From Akkermansia muciniphila (GTDB lineage Bacteria > Verrucomicrobiota > Kiritimatiellia > RFP12 > JAAYNR01), in contig CAMBQN010000002.1 in the NCBI GenBank assembly GCA_945870025.1, forward strand, positions 6,994-70,993: a DNA stretch of 64,000 nt, given 5' to 3'. Below the pieces are notes generated by a model, which saw only the letters and a list, made by a program, of their open reading frames with translations, was not told the DNA's origin and did not search any database. This document shows positions 2,971-59,362 of the stretch, piece by piece (position 1 is the first letter of the stretch; each line of letters starts with the position of its first letter). The translations under genes were made by a program, and so were the position numbers.

Positions 2971-4299
2971 ATGAACACGAAGAACCGCTCACTGAATGCG
3001 TCCGTCGCACAAGGCAAGGTCATGAACCGCTGGCTGATCGCCATCATGGGCACGCTGTTGCAGGTGTGTCTCGGGACGGTTTACGCATGGAGCTTTTTTC
3101 AGAAGCCGATCATGGCTGAATTCGGATGGAACAATGCTCAGGTGATGTGGATCTTCAGTCTGGCGATTTGTTTTCTCGGCCTTTCCGCCGCCTGGGGCGG
3201 CATCAATCTGGCCAAGATCGGTCCCACCAAGCTGGCGATGGCTGGCGGCGTGCTCTATGGCCTCGGTTATCTGCTGGCGGCGCTGGCCATGCAGCAGAAG
3301 AGCCTGGTGCTGTTCTATCTCGCGTTTGGCGTGATCGGCGGCTGCGGCTTGGGGTTGGGCTATGTGACGCCCGTCGCGACTTCCGCCAAGTGGTTCCCTG
3401 ACAAGAAGGGGTTCATCACCGGCATGGTTGTGATGGGCTTCGGACTCGGCGCGCTGTTCATGTCCAAAGTTCTGGCTCCCATCCTGATGAAGTCGTTTGA
3501 CGGCAATTTGGTCACTGTCTTTGGCTGCATCGGCATCACGATGTTGATTCTGGCCACCGCCGCCGGGTCTTTCATGCGCAACCCGCCCAAGGGCTACGTG
3601 CCCGCCGGCTACACCCCGCCCGCGACCTCGGCCGCCGCCCAAGCTGCCGGTGACGCCACCACGGCCAAGGACTGCGTCGTCTCGTTGCCGTTCATCACCG
3701 TCTGGCTGTTCTTCTTCGCCAATATCTGCGCAGGCATCATGTTCATCGGCATGCAGTCCCCCATGCTTCAGGATCTGCTCAAAGTCGGCGAAAAATACGC
3801 CAACCTGGATCCTGCCGCCGCCAAGGTCGCACTCGCTGGCGCTGGCGCCACGCTGATCGCTATCAGTTCGCTCTTCAACGGCGTCGGTCGCTTCTTCTGG
3901 GGCGGGCTGTCGGACAAGATCGGGCGCGTCAAAACCTTTCGGATCATTCTGGCATCCCAGATTTTTGTGTTTGCCGCCTTGACCCAAGTCACCAACCCCT
4001 GGCTCTTCGGCATTCTCGTCTGCTACGTGTTGCTCTGCTACGGCGGCGGCTTCGGAACCGCTCCGTCTACCGTCCTGACGATCTTCGGCGCGCGCCTGAT
4101 GCCCGTCGTTTACGGCATCCTCCTGACCGCGTGGTCGACGGCCGGCATTGTCGGCCCCCAAATCGCCGCCATGATCAAGGACAAGTTCCCGGCGCATGCA
4201 CCGCTCTACACCTTCGTGACCGGTGCGATTGTTTTGACCTGCGGCTTCGCTCTCACCTTCCTCGTCAACGACAAGCCGTTCCATAAGAAATCCTTGTAA
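2971..4299 (+). CDS. OFA-family (oxalate/formate antiporter-like) MFS transporter
   Basis: Many hydrophobic segments; GTVYAWS, KWFPDKKGFITG, NGVGRFFWGGLSDKIGR, YGGGFG. Confidence 0.9.
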   Translation: MNTKNRSLNASVAQGKVMNRWLIAIMGTLLQVCLGTVYAWSFFQKPIMAEFGWNNAQVMWIFSLAICFLGLSAAWGGINLAKIGPTKLAMAGGVLYGLGYLLAALAMQQKSLVLFYLAFGVIGGCGLGLGYVTPVATSAKWFPDKKGFITGMVVMGFGLGALFMSKVLAPILMKSFDGNLVTVFGCIGITMLILATAAGSFMRNPPKGYVPAGYTPPATSAAAQAAGDATTAKDCVVSLPFITVWLFFFANICAGIMFIGMQSPMLQDLLKVGEKYANLDPAAAKVALAGAGATLIAISSLFNGVGRFFWGGLSDKIGRVKTFRIILASQIFVFAALTQVTNPWLFGILVCYVLLCYGGGFGTAPSTVLTIFGARLMPVVYGILLTAWSTAGIVGPQIAAMIKDKFPAHAPLYTFVTGAIVLTCGFALTFLVNDKPFHKKSL

Positions 4300-56356: not shown

Positions 56357-57874
56357 TCACCCCTGTGCGCGGGCGATGAGCGCCAGGAAACGGGCGGAAG
56401 CGGCGTTCCAGACGGCGGTGTCGCCGGGCTGGAAGGTCTTGATCGGGAAGGCGGCGCGGATGAGCGGCTGCGCCTCGGCCATGGAACGGATGACCCCCAG
56501 TGCCATGGCCTGAACCATGAGGTTGCCCACGGCGGTTCCCTCCTGCGGGCCGGCGTGGACCGGCACGCCGATGGCGTCGGCGGTGAATTGGTTGAGCATC
56601 GCGTTGCCGCTGCCGCCGCCCACGATGTGGACCGCTCGCGTCGGCGTGCCGCAGATCGCGCAGATCTGGTCGTTCACCAACCGGTACTTCAACGCCAAAC
56701 TCTCGTAGACGATGCGAAGCGTCGTGCCGCGATCGGCCGGCTGCCGCTGGCCGGTCTCGGCTAGAAAGGCGCGGATGGCATCCTCCATGTTGGCCGGATT
56801 GTAGAAGCGGGCATTGTCGGGGTCAATGAAGGCGCTGAAGGCGGGCGCGGTGGGGGTGATCGCGTCGACCTCGGACCATCCCAGTCGGCGGCCGTCGGCG
56901 GCTTCCCAACCCCGGAGCAATTCCTGAACGATCCAGGTGCCCATGCAATTCTTGAGGAACCGGGTGTTGCCAATGCCCCCCTCGTTGCTGATGTTCGCGG
57001 CCATCGCTTCGTCATTCGTGATCGGTTTGCCGACGAGCCGGCCGACCAGTGACCACGTTCCCGAACTGATGATGAGGGCGTGCCGCGCATCCGTGACCGG
57101 GGCCGCCGCAAAGGCGCTGGCCGTGTCGTGCGAGCCGACGGCCACGATGGCGGCTTCGTTCAGACCGAGCACGCCGGCGAGCGGCGGGCGCAACGCTCCG
57201 ATCACCGTACTTGGGGCCACGATCGGGGGCATGATCCGCGCCGGGATCTTCAGTGCGCGCAGCACTTCACGGGACCATTTCCGCCGCTTGGCGTCCATGA
57301 GCTGCGTCACGCTCGCCCACGAGGAGTCCACCGCCGTGCAACCCCCGAGATAGAAATTGAACAGTGCTGGAATGGGGAGGAATTGAGCGGTGAGCTTCAG
57401 CAGCTCCGGCCGCCGCGTGGCGAACCAGCGCAACTGGTTGCTCATGTTGAAGGGTTGGAAGTGGATGCCGGTGATTCCGTACAGCCGACGCGCGTCGATG
57501 CACGCCTTGACCTCGTCGCACATCGTGTCGAGCCGGTGATCACGGTAACAATGGGTTTTGCCCAGCAACTCGCCGTCCGCGCTCAAAAAGGCGCCATCCG
57601 CGCCCCAGGTGTCGATGCCGATCGCGTCAAGCTGGCCGCCAAACTTCCGCTTGTAGGCCTGAAGCCCCTTGATGATGTTTTCGTAGATCCAGGTGTCATC
57701 CCAATACGTCCGCTCGGTCACGGCGCCCGCCCGGTCAGCCAGAAAGAACGACGTGCCGCCATGCGCGAAACGATGAACCTCCTCCATGCGGAAGCCGCCG
57801 CCCTCCGCAAAGATGCCCGCAAAACACTTGCCGCCCGAAGCGCCCAGATCGACTGCCAACACCTTGATTTCCAT
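56357..57874 (-). CDS. rhaB: Rhamnulokinase / FGGY-family sugar kinase
   Basis: LAVDLGASGG, GIDTWGAD, SHDTASA, ISSGTWSL, SNEGG, IVGGGS. Confidence 0.85.
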   Translation of the reverse strand: MEIKVLAVDLGASGGKCFAGIFAEGGGFRMEEVHRFAHGGTSFFLADRAGAVTERTYWDDTWIYENIIKGLQAYKRKFGGQLDAIGIDTWGADGAFLSADGELLGKTHCYRDHRLDTMCDEVKACIDARRLYGITGIHFQPFNMSNQLRWFATRRPELLKLTAQFLPIPALFNFYLGGCTAVDSSWASVTQLMDAKRRKWSREVLRALKIPARIMPPIVAPSTVIGALRPPLAGVLGLNEAAIVAVGSHDTASAFAAAPVTDARHALIISSGTWSLVGRLVGKPITNDEAMAANISNEGGIGNTRFLKNCMGTWIVQELLRGWEAADGRRLGWSEVDAITPTAPAFSAFIDPDNARFYNPANMEDAIRAFLAETGQRQPADRGTTLRIVYESLALKYRLVNDQICAICGTPTRAVHIVGGGSGNAMLNQFTADAIGVPVHAGPQEGTAVGNLMVQAMALGVIRSMAEAQPLIRAAFPIKTFQPGDTAVWNAASARFLALIARAQG

Positions 57875-57971
57875 AGACTCTCCTTAATCAAAAGAATGAC
57901 GCAGTTTATCACGGTTCGTCGTCAACCGCAACCGCAACCGCCCCGACACCTCAACCGCCCCCAAACCATCC

Positions 57972-58110
57972 AGCAATTCTAATTATGGCACATCTGTACA
58001 GTCGAAATCGAAATCGCTATCGCTATCGGGATCGAATTCCTTGCTTTCTCATCGATTTCGGTCCCGATCCCGATTTGGATCCCGATAGCGGCTGCCATAA
58101 TTAGAATTGC
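57972..58110. mobile_element. MITE/REPIN-like palindromic element (copy B) with flanking direct repeat
   Basis: Perfect 18-bp inverted ends GCAATTCTAATTATGGCA and TGCCATAATTAGAATTGC; internal ATCGNN hexamers and their complements; CCCCAAACCATCC on both sides (57959-57971, 58111-58123). Confidence 0.8.
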
Positions 58111-58123
58111 CCCCAAACCATCC

Positions 58124-58152
58124 TTGACCTCTGCTTGCCAGAGTGCTACAAT
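58124..58152 (+). promoter_or_regulatory. Sigma70-like promoter of the GT4 gene
   Basis: TTGACC-N17-TACAAT with extended -10 TG. Confidence 0.65.
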
Positions 58153-58198
58153 TGGGAACATTGGAGGGTGGAAAAGGATTTTTTTTGGAGATGATTTC

Positions 58199-59362
58199 AT
58201 GCGCGTGCTCCTGGTCGAAACAATCTCCGAACTGGGCGGGGCCCAGTGGAGCCTGTTCGAGTTGGTCCGCCAGCTCAAGCAGGACGGTGTCGATGTGCTC
58301 GCGTTGGTTCCCAAGGGGCCGTTGCAGGTCGCGCTGAAAGACGCGGGCGTTCCGGTCGCCTCCATTCCCTCGTTCCGGGCGCGACGCAAGCCGTTGGCCC
58401 TGTTGGCTCAGTTCTTTAGGGGCGTGAACGAAACCGCGCAGATCCACAAGGCCGTCTGGAGATTCAAACCGGACATCATCCACGCTAACTCGATTACCGC
58501 CGGACTGCTCTCCTTGTCTCTGGCCCGCAGCCGGGCGCTCGTCTGTCATGTCCGCGACCTCCGTTTTCCGGTCAAGCCGATGAGCCGGATCGCGCGGAAG
58601 GCGCGGCGGATTGTGGCGGCATCCGACTCCATCGACAATTCCTTGAGCGAATTCCTGCGCGGTTCGTCGCGCAGCCGGCTGGTCCGCGTCGTGAACGGCA
58701 TCGACATCGGCCGCTTTGCGCCGTGTGACCCCGCTCAAGCGCGTCACGCCTTCGGACTGCCCCCTGGCGTGCCGGTCATCGGCATGATCGCGCATCTGAC
58801 GCCGTGGAAGCGTCACGAGGTCTTCATTGAAATGGCGGCCCAAATCGCCCAAAAAAGCCCCGACGCCCATTTTGTCATCGTCGGGCGCGATCTGCTGGGC
58901 GAAAATAAAGCCTATCGCAAAGCACTTCGTCAGCGCGTCACATCCCGAGGCCTCGATGCCGCGTTCCATTGGCTCGAAGAGGTGGGCGACGTGCGCGAGG
59001 TTCTTCAGGCCATGGATGTCCTGGTCCACCCGCCCCACGACGAGCCGTTCGGCCGTGTCCTGTGCGAGGCGATGGCCATGCGCAGACCGGTCGTTGCCGT
59101 CCGGAAAAACGGTCCGGCATCCATCGTCGAACACGGGGTGAGCGGCCTGCTGGTGAGCGCCCCTAAGTCGGAACCGTTCGCGCAAGCGGTGCTCCATCTG
59201 CTGAATAACCCTGCGCAAGCCAAAGCCATGGGCGAAGCGGGACGGCAGCGGATCATCGACCAGTTTGACATCACCCGAACCGCCAGTCAGATGCGCATCG
59301 TTTACCAGGCGGCTTTCAACGATTTTGAGATGGAACGCCGGGCGCGCACGAATCAACCCTAG
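58199..59362 (+). CDS. GT4 glycosyltransferase
   Basis: GGAQ, HAN, NGID, WKRH, EPFGRVLCEAMAM. Confidence 0.9.
   Translation: MRVLLVETISELGGAQWSLFELVRQLKQDGVDVLALVPKGPLQVALKDAGVPVASIPSFRARRKPLALLAQFFRGVNETAQIHKAVWRFKPDIIHANSITAGLLSLSLARSRALVCHVRDLRFPVKPMSRIARKARRIVAASDSIDNSLSEFLRGSSRSRLVRVVNGIDIGRFAPCDPAQARHAFGLPPGVPVIGMIAHLTPWKRHEVFIEMAAQIAQKSPDAHFVIVGRDLLGENKAYRKALRQRVTSRGLDAAFHWLEEVGDVREVLQAMDVLVHPPHDEPFGRVLCEAMAMRRPVVAVRKNGPASIVEHGVSGLLVSAPKSEPFAQAVLHLLNNPAQAKAMGEAGRQRIIDQFDITRTASQMRIVYQAAFNDFEMERRARTNQP

Follow-up and report, generated by a model that had tools for sequence, protein, structure and literature searches.

A high-copy MITE with insertion sequence ends beside a glycosyltransferase promoter, and the positional bias of its family toward TTG(ACA)

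In the 64,000-nucleotide stretch of DNA analysed here (the window), the spacer between two divergent genes, encoding a carbohydrate kinase and a glycosyltransferase, holds a palindrome that ends next to the glycosyltransferase promoter. The locus raises the question of what this palindrome is, which enzyme could have mobilized it, where its repetitive body came from and whether its place beside a promoter is a coincidence. The original prediction was of a recently inserted non-autonomous element, MITE- or REPIN-like, with an inverted microsatellite as its body.

The element occupies positions 57971-58112 and is 142 bp in length. Its arms (57973-57990, GCAATTCTAATTATGGCA, and 58093-58110) are perfect 18 bp reverse complements, as had been predicted, and the terminal inverted repeats match at 19 of 20 positions once the terminal dinucleotide is counted. 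With up to three mismatches allowed, the 18-mer arm occurs at two sites in the whole window, both belonging to the element itself, and gave 0 matches in 100 shuffles. The complementary hexamer body was likewise recovered: TRF reported TCGAAA in 2.5 units (58002-58016) and ATCGCT in 2.7 units (58013-58028), and the hexamer arms at 57999-58039 and 58054-58094 are 71% complementary. Folded as single-stranded DNA, the element reaches -33.9 kcal/mol (z = -6.7 against 200 shuffles). A six-frame search for ORFs of at least 40 amino acids over the element returned only chance frames of the GC-rich surroundings that run into the adjacent genes, and the element has no coding capacity of its own. The best Rfam match, to a microRNA family, scored 29.7 bits, short of the gathering score of 90, and was discarded as noise.

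A 13 bp sequence, CCCCAAACCATCC, flanks the element on both sides. The exact direct repeat, GCCCCCAAACCATCC, extends to 15 nt (57957-57971 and 58109-58123) because it overlaps the final GC of the right arm. The repeat claimed in the original prediction is therefore real, but its 13 bp length is peculiar to this copy, the norm of the family being 9 bp: the right terminus here is CC instead of TG, which stretches a 10 bp duplication to an apparent 13 bp. The promoter begins at the base after the right repeat copy, so that the element does abut the -35 box as proposed, and the same promoter is conserved in the empty site of a congener (G003). The copy is atypical in this respect too, its -35 hexamer beginning 14 nt past the arm compared with 20-21 nt in the family. 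The features of the locus are listed in Table 1.

Table 1. Features of the element and its surroundings, in window coordinates
Feature	Position	Strand	Basis or remark
FGGY-family carbohydrate kinase, divergent, upstream	56357..57874	-	Pfam PF02782 5.6e-33, PF00370 2.7e-30
Left target-site duplication copy CCAAACCATC, 10 bp	57961..57970	.	Single copy in empty sites
Left terminal inverted repeat including terminal CA, CAGCAATTCTAATTATGGCA	57971..57990	+	CA in 34/41 copies; same terminus on autonomous IS
Spacer CATCTGTACAG from repeat arm to hexamer arm, marking the 'left' side of family A	57991..58001	+	40 aligned family A copies
Left hexamer arm, TCGAAA x2, TCGCTA x2, TCGGGA, TCGAAT	58002..58037	+	TRF
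Central loop TCCTTGCTTTCTCA	58038..58051	+	Family A alignment
Right hexamer arm, TCGATT TCGGTC CCGATC CCGATT TGGATC CCGATA GCGGC	58052..58092	+	Partial complement of left arm
Right terminal inverted repeat TGCCATAATTAGAATTGC; TGTCAT in most copies here	58093..58110	-	Arm matching, family alignment
CC in place of terminal TG (TG in 29/41 copies)	58111..58112	.	Lengthens the apparent direct repeat
Right target-site duplication copy CCAAACCATC	58113..58122	.	Matches left copy
Sigma-70-type promoter of the glycosyltransferase gene, TTGACC-17 nt-TACAAT, TG before the -10	58124..58152	+	10/12 matches
Family 4 / group 1 glycosyltransferase, downstream	58199..59362	+	Pfam PF00534 3.5e-35, PF13439 1.3e-12

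With respect to transcription of this region, run X15 has an RNA contig that covers the glycosyltransferase gene from 58177 onwards and leaves 58132-58155 uncovered, a weak hint at most. The RNA data lack cover at 57868-57963 and 58132-58155; because they are contigs rather than reads, and because the allele in the RNA sample is unspecified, we draw no inference from these gaps.

Further copies of the terminal repeat, which the original prediction would lead one to expect, proved to be plentiful. In the host genome (2.76 Mb, 81% complete, with repeats at nearly all contig ends), blastn located the element at 61 places, and 120 repeat-arm matches resolve into 44 paired elements and 32 single ends. 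Forty of the paired elements belong to what we term family A and four to family B; family A copies measure 132, 138 or 144 bp through gain or loss of hexamer units. The element is present in 4/4 genomes of the same genus, 6/6 of the same family and 19/40 relatives overall, and those relatives with family A copies that carry a name are labelled Kiritimatiellia (L089). The consensus ends read CA-GCAATTCTAATTATGG...TG, with CA at 34 and TG at 29 of 41 copies in the host genome. Flanking duplications are present at most copies, usually of 9 bp: in the host genome the flanking 9-mers agree at seven or more positions in 18/41 copies and perfectly in 9/41, compared with 0.4% of shuffled pairs at seven or more, and of 30 copies in the relatives, 13 show a perfect 9 bp duplication and 17 match at eight or more positions.

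The insertion could also be caught in its absence. The orthologous spacer of congener G003 lacks the element and has a single copy of the target, and each of two lake-water metagenome runs (X1 and X3) contains a 5703 nt contig of the empty allele, so the single-copy site that recent insertion implies exists in both a related genome and a natural population. The metagenome contig differs from the locus at none of 257 nt on the left and one of 292 nt on the right (1 in 549 aligned), and skips exactly 152 nt, the joint being ambiguous by 15 nt. In a further run (X11), unitigs end exactly at 57971 and 58109. Among the contig pieces listed from three DNA runs, which have 597 further, unlisted pieces, neither junction of the filled allele is bridged. 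The insertion would be recent enough for cells with and without the element to coexist in nature.

The ends of the element are shared with autonomous insertion sequences. The 20 bp MITE ends (CAGCAATTCTAATTATGGCA) are the ends of a widespread IS of approximately 1.44 kb with a single DDE transposase of ~440 amino acids; in other phyla this IS has the same ends and the same 9 bp duplications as the MITE. Three loci (L060, L074 and L209) carry an IS with MITE-identical ends around a ~440 amino acid ORF, and the end pair was found at 51 of 80 further IS loci, 31 of those 51 with a perfect 9 bp duplication; the ends of all of these read CAGCAATTCT(A/C)ATT. The autonomous element with matching ends envisaged in the original prediction thus exists, outside the host genome. 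The element at 57971-58112 is a member of family A, a high-copy MITE: it is small and non-coding, it has terminal inverted repeats, a duplication of fixed length, dispersed copies and empty sites, and it shares its ends with an IS. The description as a recent, non-autonomous MITE with an inverted microsatellite body is supported by these copies, duplications, empty sites and autonomous elements together.

The mobilizing enzyme had been called unclear. Judged by the sequence of the transposase that shares these ends, the predicted enzyme is an ISNCY-type, IS4-related DDE transposase, though none was found in the genome. The source annotation is 'ISNCY family transposase', and the ISNCY (ISNpu3-like) family comprises at least 8000 protein clusters in many phyla. 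Pfam DDE_Tnp_1 scores 33.9 bits for the L074 protein and 18.4 for that of L060 (cut-off 23), and NCBIfam IS4 models give 15.7-19.9 bits against cut-offs of 115-152 (19.9 against 115). In an alignment of the transposases (A1), D124, D213/D214 and E334 are invariant, and the D-D-E spacings of 89-90 and 120 residues lie inside the IS4 ranges. The Y(2)R(3)E(6)K motif is incomplete: R330 and E334 are invariant, there is no Y three residues before R, and an invariant K stands at E+8 and not at E+7. The IS duplication has a weak symmetric internal preference, GT.....AC. A sequence search of solved structures with the transposase gave only insignificant zinc-finger-like matches. Using tblastn with two transposase queries, no transposase of this type was found in the host genome at its 81% completeness, and among the 40 relatives only G027 yielded fragments; Pfam DDE_Tnp_1 hits in the host genome amount to two short C-terminal fragments whose locations bear no relation to the repeats. 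Given that degree of completeness and the repeats at nearly all contig ends, the genome may nevertheless carry a helper. Seven contig starts that join the terminal repeat to a different interior ('family C') were initially taken as an IS end; this candidate was dropped because a metagenome contig with the same interior (L312) has it as a separate palindrome with neither terminal repeat nor transposase.

The IS is not the source of the hexamer body. From sequence comparison, the body is most likely derived from a cassette around a four-helix-bundle gene of the 23S rRNA IVS protein family. Arms of family B flank intact four-helix-bundle genes at 94-100% identity. At locus L239, a terminal repeat is followed by a hexamer arm and the start of an intact four-helix-bundle gene; the contig stops within this gene, so that a single end is visible. 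L306 and L302 are intermediates, likewise with one end and partly deleted. On the opposite strand, the left hexamer arm reads as GAT-NNN (Asp-X) codon pairs and the central loop contains GAGAAAG, which precedes the acidic-tail repeat in a four-helix-bundle cassette (C25). For the family A body itself the link to the cassette is thin, consisting of one 34 nt low-complexity match (88%) and short shared strings. Neither the 30 cassette loci from the bacterial family nor 53 loci from genome contigs included a complete repeat-gene-repeat unit with both ends. Originally, the gene would have been enclosed by a stem formed between its leader and the hexamer repeat that encodes (Asp-X)n in its tail, and deletion of the gene would have left the inverted microsatellite behind.

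The family is biased in position toward TTG(ACA). Across the family, in four partly overlapping sets of flanks, the start of TTGAC(A) lies 20-21 nt past the repeat arm. Exact TTGAC started 20-22 nt after ...AATTGC in 11 of 117 own-genome flanks (0.90 expected, P=4e-9), in 10 of 60 flanks from relatives (0.24 expected, P=1e-13) and at 10 of 76 ends from other phyla (0.33 expected, P=3e-12); 24/31 such flanks had a -10-like hexamer at a spacing of 16-18 nt, against 47/222 of the others. When one mismatch was allowed, TTGACA started at 20 or 21 nt in 44/253 flanks, compared with mostly 0-3 and at most 7 at other positions. The autonomous IS behave in the same manner, with TTGACA (at most one mismatch) exactly 17 nt past the terminus in 13/98 flanks (0.8 expected, P=4e-12); these 13 start at position 18, and positions 19 and 20 have no matches. 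The preference is partial, in that a near-consensus TTGACA stands at the fixed distance in only 25/67 family A elements, and several TTGAC flanks of the IS set have no visible -10. Where TTG is present, AC follows it more often than expected (16/38 MITE flanks, 7/22 IS flanks). A symmetric, two-sided target was not seen as such: among the 31 IS with perfect duplications, TTG lies on one side in 14, on neither in 17 and on both in none, where independence would give approximately 1.6. An orientation bias that was apparent by eye was dropped at 14 left versus 11 right. In the open-access literature retrieved by a narrow search, including the accessible parts of the reviews PMC10969869 and PMC3184786, no description of this target preference was found.

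Could the filled site be an artefact of assembly? The element is a repeat that breaks the assembly at many contig ends, two runs show the empty form only across the site, and the filled junction is unbridged among the listed pieces. Against this, a chimeric join needs shared words and the 15 nt repeat lies outside the element consensus, the same ends and duplication structure recur at dozens of other sites, and the unitig stops of run X11 are those expected for a branch between two alleles; we regard an artefact as extremely unlikely. REP elements, to our knowledge, do not duplicate their target. An origin as a REPIN or REP-type element, with a RAYT (Y1) transposase as the mobilizing enzyme, would account for a palindromic, intergenic, high-copy repeat in a genome with three Y1_Tnp matches, but 9 bp duplications and CA...TG termini identical to those of a DDE IS with equal duplication length make this origin extremely unlikely, and the 'REPIN-like' part of the original prediction is unfit because of the target duplications and the ends shared with that IS. 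Movement by the four-helix-bundle hairpin cassette itself, with the terminal repeats incidental, would fit the cassettes and gene-less hexamer hairpins that lack terminal repeats (L235, L215/L216) and the multi-copy nature of such genes, with 33 matches in 6/7 genomes of the bacterial family. Since the family A body nearly always lies between terminal repeats in this genome, and since the elements match the IS in duplication length and termini, we judge such movement very improbable.

Random insertion, with the promoter link produced by survival of harmless insertions in promoter-bearing spacers, is consistent with the intergenic location of the elements, with a 9 bp duplication that spares the promoter out to ~17-18 bp upstream of the -35, and with the enrichment of AC after TTG, which could reflect selection for true promoters. 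Selection cannot give a peak one base wide, however, whether in the 44/253 flanks with a start at 20 or 21 nt or in the IS set with its abrupt stop after position 18, and the geometry is identical in unrelated phyla. Survival of random insertions is accordingly a very unlikely explanation. That this particular copy has been co-opted to regulate the glycosyltransferase promoter, as an insulator hairpin or by an A/T-rich end acting like an UP element, is suggested by position only, the A/T-rich end lying ~14-28 bp upstream of the -35. Since the population is polymorphic for the insertion, and since the empty site already has the promoter, we consider co-option improbable.

The explanation that, as a whole, very probably holds is that of a family A MITE with IS-type ends, mobilized in trans with a bias toward TTG(ACA), whose body is a gutted cassette. 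Here, an ISNCY-type transposase supplied in trans would bind both ends, excise or copy the element and join it to a staggered cut of 9 bp (10 bp at this locus) in the target, the product being an insertion into the spacer between the divergent kinase and glycosyltransferase genes just upstream of the glycosyltransferase -35. We infer both the cut-and-paste chemistry and trans-mobilization in the host. Members of the transposase family would prefer TTG, often the full TTGAC(A), at a distance of 8-9 bp from the 9 bp duplication, to one side of it, and may read it either directly in the DNA or through a promoter-bound protein. With such a target preference, elements would build up at 17-18 bp ahead of promoters that face outward, and those promoters would stay intact. 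It is tempting to go further and to suggest that ISNCY transposases are promoter-seeking, reading the -35 directly or via sigma-70/RNA polymerase and integrating exactly 17-18 bp upstream, and that the MITEs are gene-less hairpin four-helix-bundle cassettes; to this bolder reading we give slightly less than an even chance.

Taken by itself, this copy is a MITE insertion of the ordinary kind, and its polymorphism in a natural lake population makes it useful as a marker. The wider interest lies in a very widespread IS family and its MITEs with a one-base-sharp preference for sites 17-18 bp upstream of TTGAC(A) that does not destroy promoters. If intrinsic, the preference would be a rare bacterial case of promoter-directed integration, would explain the high copy number in compact genomes and would offer a natural tool for DNA insertion at promoters. 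The link between MITE body and cassette would give a concrete origin for the 'inverted microsatellite' hairpins of many phyla.

Among known systems, the Nezha MITE, reportedly described by Zhou et al. 2008 from Anabaena variabilis and Nostoc sp., is a close parallel. According to the accessible part of PMC3184786, its presumed helper is ISNpu3 of Nostoc punctiforme; by the description available there, it is likewise ~130-170 bp in length with a stable hairpin, has empty and filled sites among relatives, and shares its terminal repeats with an IS absent from the MITE's host, and that part makes no mention of a fixed distance to -35 hexamers. It differs in the phylum of its host, and in that the body here is a hexamer microsatellite hairpin. 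An ISNCY-annotated IS on the N. punctiforme plasmid pNPUN02, which we do not equate with ISNpu3, has a transposase 62% identical to that of L060, ends of CAGCAATTCTCAT... whose first 11 nt are those of our element, and a 10 bp duplication.

Mobile insertion cassettes, of which MIC231 in the IS231 (IS4 family) group is an example, have IS ends and a passenger gene, lack a transposase and are mobilized in trans. The end, arm and gene start of L239 resemble such a cassette, and the MITE looks like a cassette with its gene deleted; unlike in those cassettes, only one end is seen, and the passenger is itself enclosed by a hairpin and also occurs without IS ends. The term mobile insertion cassette occurs in the accessible part of PMC2266710. 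As far as the accessible part of PMC4596501 describes it, the BrickBuilt MITE of Porphyromonas gingivalis also has a tandem repeat of varying unit number as its body and is always intergenic, but that repeat is a 23 nt direct minisatellite and the element carries promoters, whereas family A has 6 nt units in inverted arms and the promoter outside the element. The IS4 family (Tn5/IS50, IS10, IS231), for which the accessible part of PMC2266710 gives a spacing of D(60-110)D(100-150)E, shares with the autonomous IS the single ORF, the D-D-E spacing, the 9 bp duplication (approximately one helix turn) and a weak symmetric preference within it. The differences are the incomplete YREK motif, NCBIfam IS4 scores far under the cut-offs and the assignment to ISNCY in the sources.

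Finally, among the yeast retroelements Ty3 inserts at Pol III start sites and Tf1 upstream of Pol II promoters. Our elements resemble these, by analogy only, in entering at a defined position ahead of promoters, sparing genes, and if the promoter-seeking reading is true they would follow a comparable bacterial 'safe haven' strategy. The enzymes and hosts are different, and here tethering is no more likely than a direct sequence preference for TTG(AC).

Both arms of the element between the kinase and glycosyltransferase genes were exact reverse complements, as stated in the original prediction of perfect 18-bp inverted repeats, and were found only at these two sites of the window; a search with the 18-mer arm allowing ≤3 mismatches gave no further site, and 0 matches were obtained in 100 shuffles. 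The predicted body of inverted hexamers was also confirmed, with TCGAAA and ATCGCT units in two partly complementary arms, as was the abutment on the −35 box of the glycosyltransferase gene, where TTGACC begins at the base directly following the right repeat copy. Folding of the element as single-stranded DNA gave −33.9 kcal/mol (z=−6.7). The flanking direct repeat reads as 15 nt because it includes the GC at the end of the right arm.

Features of the window locus and of the PF05635 genes found elsewhere in the same genome (C numbers denote its contigs)
Feature	Coordinates	Strand	Remarks
FGGY carbohydrate kinase gene	56357-57874	minus	
Microsatellite (CAACCG)3.2	57923-57941		kinase-side part of the spacer
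Flanking direct repeat, left copy	57957-57971		15 nt, GCCCCCAAACCATCC
Terminal inverted repeat, left arm	57973-57990		exact reverse complement of right arm
Terminal inverted repeat, right arm	58093-58110		exact reverse complement of left arm
Flanking direct repeat, right copy	58109-58123		15 nt, GCCCCCAAACCATCC
Promoter TTGACC-17-TACAAT	starts 58124		TG before the −10 box
Family 4 glycosyltransferase gene	58199-59362	plus	
PF05635 four-helix-bundle gene	C7:37100-37680		
PF05635 four-helix-bundle gene	C14:29820-30500		
PF05635 four-helix-bundle gene	C25:29880-30560		

Using the 138-bp core as a blastn query, we found 61 places in the genome that contains the window at C2:6994-70993 (2.76 Mb, 59 contigs, 81 % complete), ~40 of them full length with 92–99 % identity. 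The element was also present in 4/4 genomes of the same genus, 6/6 of the same bacterial family and 19/40 of the relatives searched. Matching the repeat arm as a pattern with ≤3 mismatches gave 120 arms in the own genome, comprising 44 pairs, each of them an element, and 32 unpaired ends; many contigs terminate within element copies. The pairs measured 138 bp (n=27), 144 bp (n=6), 132 bp (n=4), 140 bp (n=3) and 141, 134, 126 and 120 bp (n=1 each), the 6-bp steps representing single hexamer units gained or lost, mostly in the left arm. Forty pairs belong to family A, that of the window copy, and four to family B, which shares the outer 14 nt of the arm and differs in its hexamer body. With three paired copies near contig ends left out, the consensus ends were CA-GCAATTC...GAATTGC-TG (CA in 34/41 copies, TG in 29/41); the 18-bp ends first described fall two bases short of these termini. 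In this CA...TG frame the flanking 9-mers matched at ≥7/9 positions in 18/41 copies and perfectly in 9/41, whereas shuffled left/right pairings reached ≥7/9 in only 0.4 %. From four relatives 40 copies were taken, and among the 30 analysed after leaving out 10 without an arm pair by pattern, the 9-bp duplication was perfect in 13 and matched at ≥8/9 in 17. By every criterion tested here, the element is a MITE.

Another type of element has the same terminal repeat followed by a palindrome, GGTCGATTGACAAACTAACTGCGCC..., and occupies the first 146–164 nt of contigs C14, C23, C24, C25, C35, C43 and C56; all seven break at the identical place. A metagenome contig (L312:2000-2070) holds this palindrome without the terminal repeat.

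The flanking duplication of the window copy is real, and its predicted length of 13 bp becomes 10 bp in the family frame. The left side reads CCAAACCATC-CA-arm and the right side arm-CC-CCAAACCATC-C, with the terminal TG replaced by CC. This CC is identical to the dinucleotide just upstream of the left duplication, and the base following the right duplication is a C, like that of the left CA; the apparent 13 bp arise because CC and C coincide with adjoining target bases. In two other copies (C15:65763-65904 and C5:20170-20311), the deviant terminal dinucleotide is likewise identical to the neighbouring target bases, and the direct repeat is 11–12 bp.

The search for an empty site recommended with the original prediction was successful in a same-genus genome and in metagenomes. 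G003 has the kinase and glycosyltransferase genes side by side, like the window, and its spacer contains a single diverged target copy, then the same promoter, without the element. Two lake-water metagenome runs from different years (X1 and X3) contain a 5703-nt contig that is identical to the window over 57700-57956 and differs at 1 position over 58109-58400. It fuses the two stretches without the intervening 152 nt, the junction being ambiguous over 15 nt. This contig is the empty allele with one repeat copy. Unitigs of a further run, X11, end at 57971 and 58109, as expected where two alleles branch. No piece among those listed from the metagenome runs bridges the filled-allele junctions, and the filled form is known from the genome assembly. 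An insertion created by misassembly would not be expected to show what we observed, since the window copy has the structure seen at dozens of further sites, and its 15-nt repeat is foreign to the element consensus. The window locus is an ordinary, recent and polymorphic MITE insertion, its filled form coming from the assembly only.

The same spacer is occupied by other sequence in G002 and G001, and in G004 the contig breaks there in a different IS with ends CAGGGCGAACGCATCTAA and a 10-bp duplication, TTTTCCATTG. The CAACCG microsatellite has two units in G004 and G001 and one in G003. This second, CAGGGCGAACGCATCTAA-ended IS or MITE family was seen in G004 on L160 (~2330-2380) and L165 (reverse strand, near the contig end), and further in the own genome at C49:8630-8650 and C2:75450-75470, and on L171 and L194. 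Several family A or B copies lie within 0–9 bp of such an end; on L171, the 9 nt duplicated by the MITE are the final ones of such an end, which is itself located 9 nt upstream of TTGACA.

An autonomous element with the same ends, for which the original prediction recommended a search, was found in other taxa and not in the host genome. A first scan of one genome per species, with the arm given as 16 nt with one N, returned chance matches and many CA-preceded ends in Desulfobacterales, Lentisphaerales, Kiritimatiellia, Chloroflexota, Alphaproteobacteria and others. At two loci, a single ORF (447 aa in L060, 439 aa in L074) was enclosed by both ends, 1.4–1.8 kb apart, and L074 has a perfect 9-bp duplication, GGCACCCAT. 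Against a cut-off of 23 bits, Pfam DDE_Tnp_1 reached 33.9 with L074 and 18.4 with L060, and NCBIfam IS4 models scored far under their cut-offs on these transposases. In tblastn against plasmids, 62 % identity was found to an 'ISNCY family transposase' gene of Nostoc punctiforme pNPUN02, in an IS with ends CAGCAATTCTCAT... and a 10-bp duplication. The transposase family is very large, with at least 8000 protein clusters (8000/8000 scored candidates at E≤1e-10), mostly on IS-sized contigs. An alignment of 10 sequences showed D124, D213/D214 and E334 invariant at IS4-like spacing and an incomplete YREK motif, judged against the IS4 hallmarks in the available part of PMC2266710. With the protein alignment as query, a second scan, not fully independent because L074 recurs in it as L380, kept 80 IS loci, of which 51 had an end pair 1.40–1.93 kb apart; 31 of these 51 had perfect 9-bp duplications. 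No homologue was found by tblastn in the 81 %-complete own genome, or in the 40 relatives except for fragments in G027. Short-read bins typically lack IS that are present in multiple copies, and we therefore describe the helper as not found rather than absent.

These elements tend to insert at a fixed distance from −35 hexamers. Counting flank positions outward from the base after ...AATTGC, an exact TTGAC started at 20–22 in 11/117 own-genome flanks (0.90 expected from other positions; P=4e-9), 10/60 flanks in relatives (0.24 expected; P=1e-13) and 10/76 CA/TG-ended matches from other phyla (0.33 expected; P=3e-12). Ends without TG gave 1/50 (0.14 expected; P=0.13), the lone match being L123, which is a genuine family A copy ending in TA. 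The reverse motif showed no peak in the same flanks. When the three sets were pooled, TTGACA with ≤1 mismatch started at 20 or 21 in 44/253 flanks, with a minor −35-like peak at position 11 (7/253), 9–10 bp or about one helix turn nearer. A −10-like hexamer followed at 16–18 nt spacing in 24/31 TTGAC flanks versus 47/222 others. In family A, 25/67 copies had such a −35-like hexamer at one end alone, in 14 cases next to the CATCTGTACAG side and in 11 next to the opposite side, and 0 had it at both ends. Around autonomous IS, counted from the terminus, the hexamer was exactly at position 18 (17 nt between) in 13/98 flanks (0.8 expected; P=4e-12), with 0 at 19 or 20; an exact TTG occurred at position 18 in 22/98 IS flanks and one base further out in 38/177 MITE flanks. 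The duplication itself shows a weak and symmetric preference, GT.....AC. The arrangement typical of the family can be written as [−35 hexamer]-8 or 9 nt-[9-bp duplication]-element, the promoter being directed away; the window copy, whose −35 hexamer begins at position 14, is outside the modal class. A peak this sharp, one base in width, cannot be due to selection alone. Both AC following TTG and −10 boxes are enriched, which suggests that genuine promoters are either what is mainly targeted or what mainly survives.

A search of the own genome for the 23S rRNA IVS protein family (PF05635) gave three genes, each within its own inverted tandem repeats of 6, 7 or 8 nt units; G001 and G004 have 12 matches each. 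The 5′ leader of the C25 cassette contains ATCGAAATCGGGACCGGGATCGAAC, and its gene ends ...GAGAAAG-TCGATCCCGATCCCGATCCCGATTTCGATTTCGAA. Because this tail encodes EKVDPDPDPDFDFE, the hexamers are Asp-X codon pairs and their complement. On the opposite strand, family A shows the cassette layout minus the gene, ...GGGATCGGGACCGAAATCGAC-GAGAAAG-...GACCCCGATAGCGATAGCGATTTCGATTTCGAC, the sole significant match between its body and the cassette being 34 nt at 88 %. The link is much clearer for family B, whose arms flank intact genes on both sides in same-genus genomes (L235, L242 and L246; 94–100 % identity over 27–39 nt). Up to its contig end, L239 has terminal repeat, arm, ribosome-binding site and intact gene start; L306 has the repeat and arm with the start codon plus five codons, from where it passes straight to the final ~30 codons and the tail arm; in L302 a portion of the gene survives along with the two arms and the right terminal repeat, after which comes TG-9-9-TTGAGG-17-TATACT. 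No complete two-ended gene-bearing unit was found among the cassette loci examined, and cassettes and gene-less hairpins also occur without terminal repeats. The MITEs appear to derive by gene deletion from a repeat-capped cassette rather than from the IS itself. Gene-less TAATCG/TAATCT hexamer hairpins without terminal repeats were seen at L163 ~2975-3060 (G001), C6:65700-65730, C8:15580-15610 and C12:74910-74960, and some adjoin family A copies.

What merits follow-up is not the locus, which is ordinary, but the target choice of the family and the source of its body. In a limited search of the open-access literature, including the available part of PMC10969869, neither a fixed spacing from −35 hexamers nor a MITE originating from a four-helix-bundle cassette was found to have been described. 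By description, not sequence, the element works in the same mode as Nezha with ISNpu3, as set out in the accessible portion of PMC3184786. BrickBuilt, in the part of PMC4596501 available, is a precedent for a tandem repeat within a MITE, and the repeat-capped gene cassette from which the present MITEs may derive is akin to a mobile insertion cassette.
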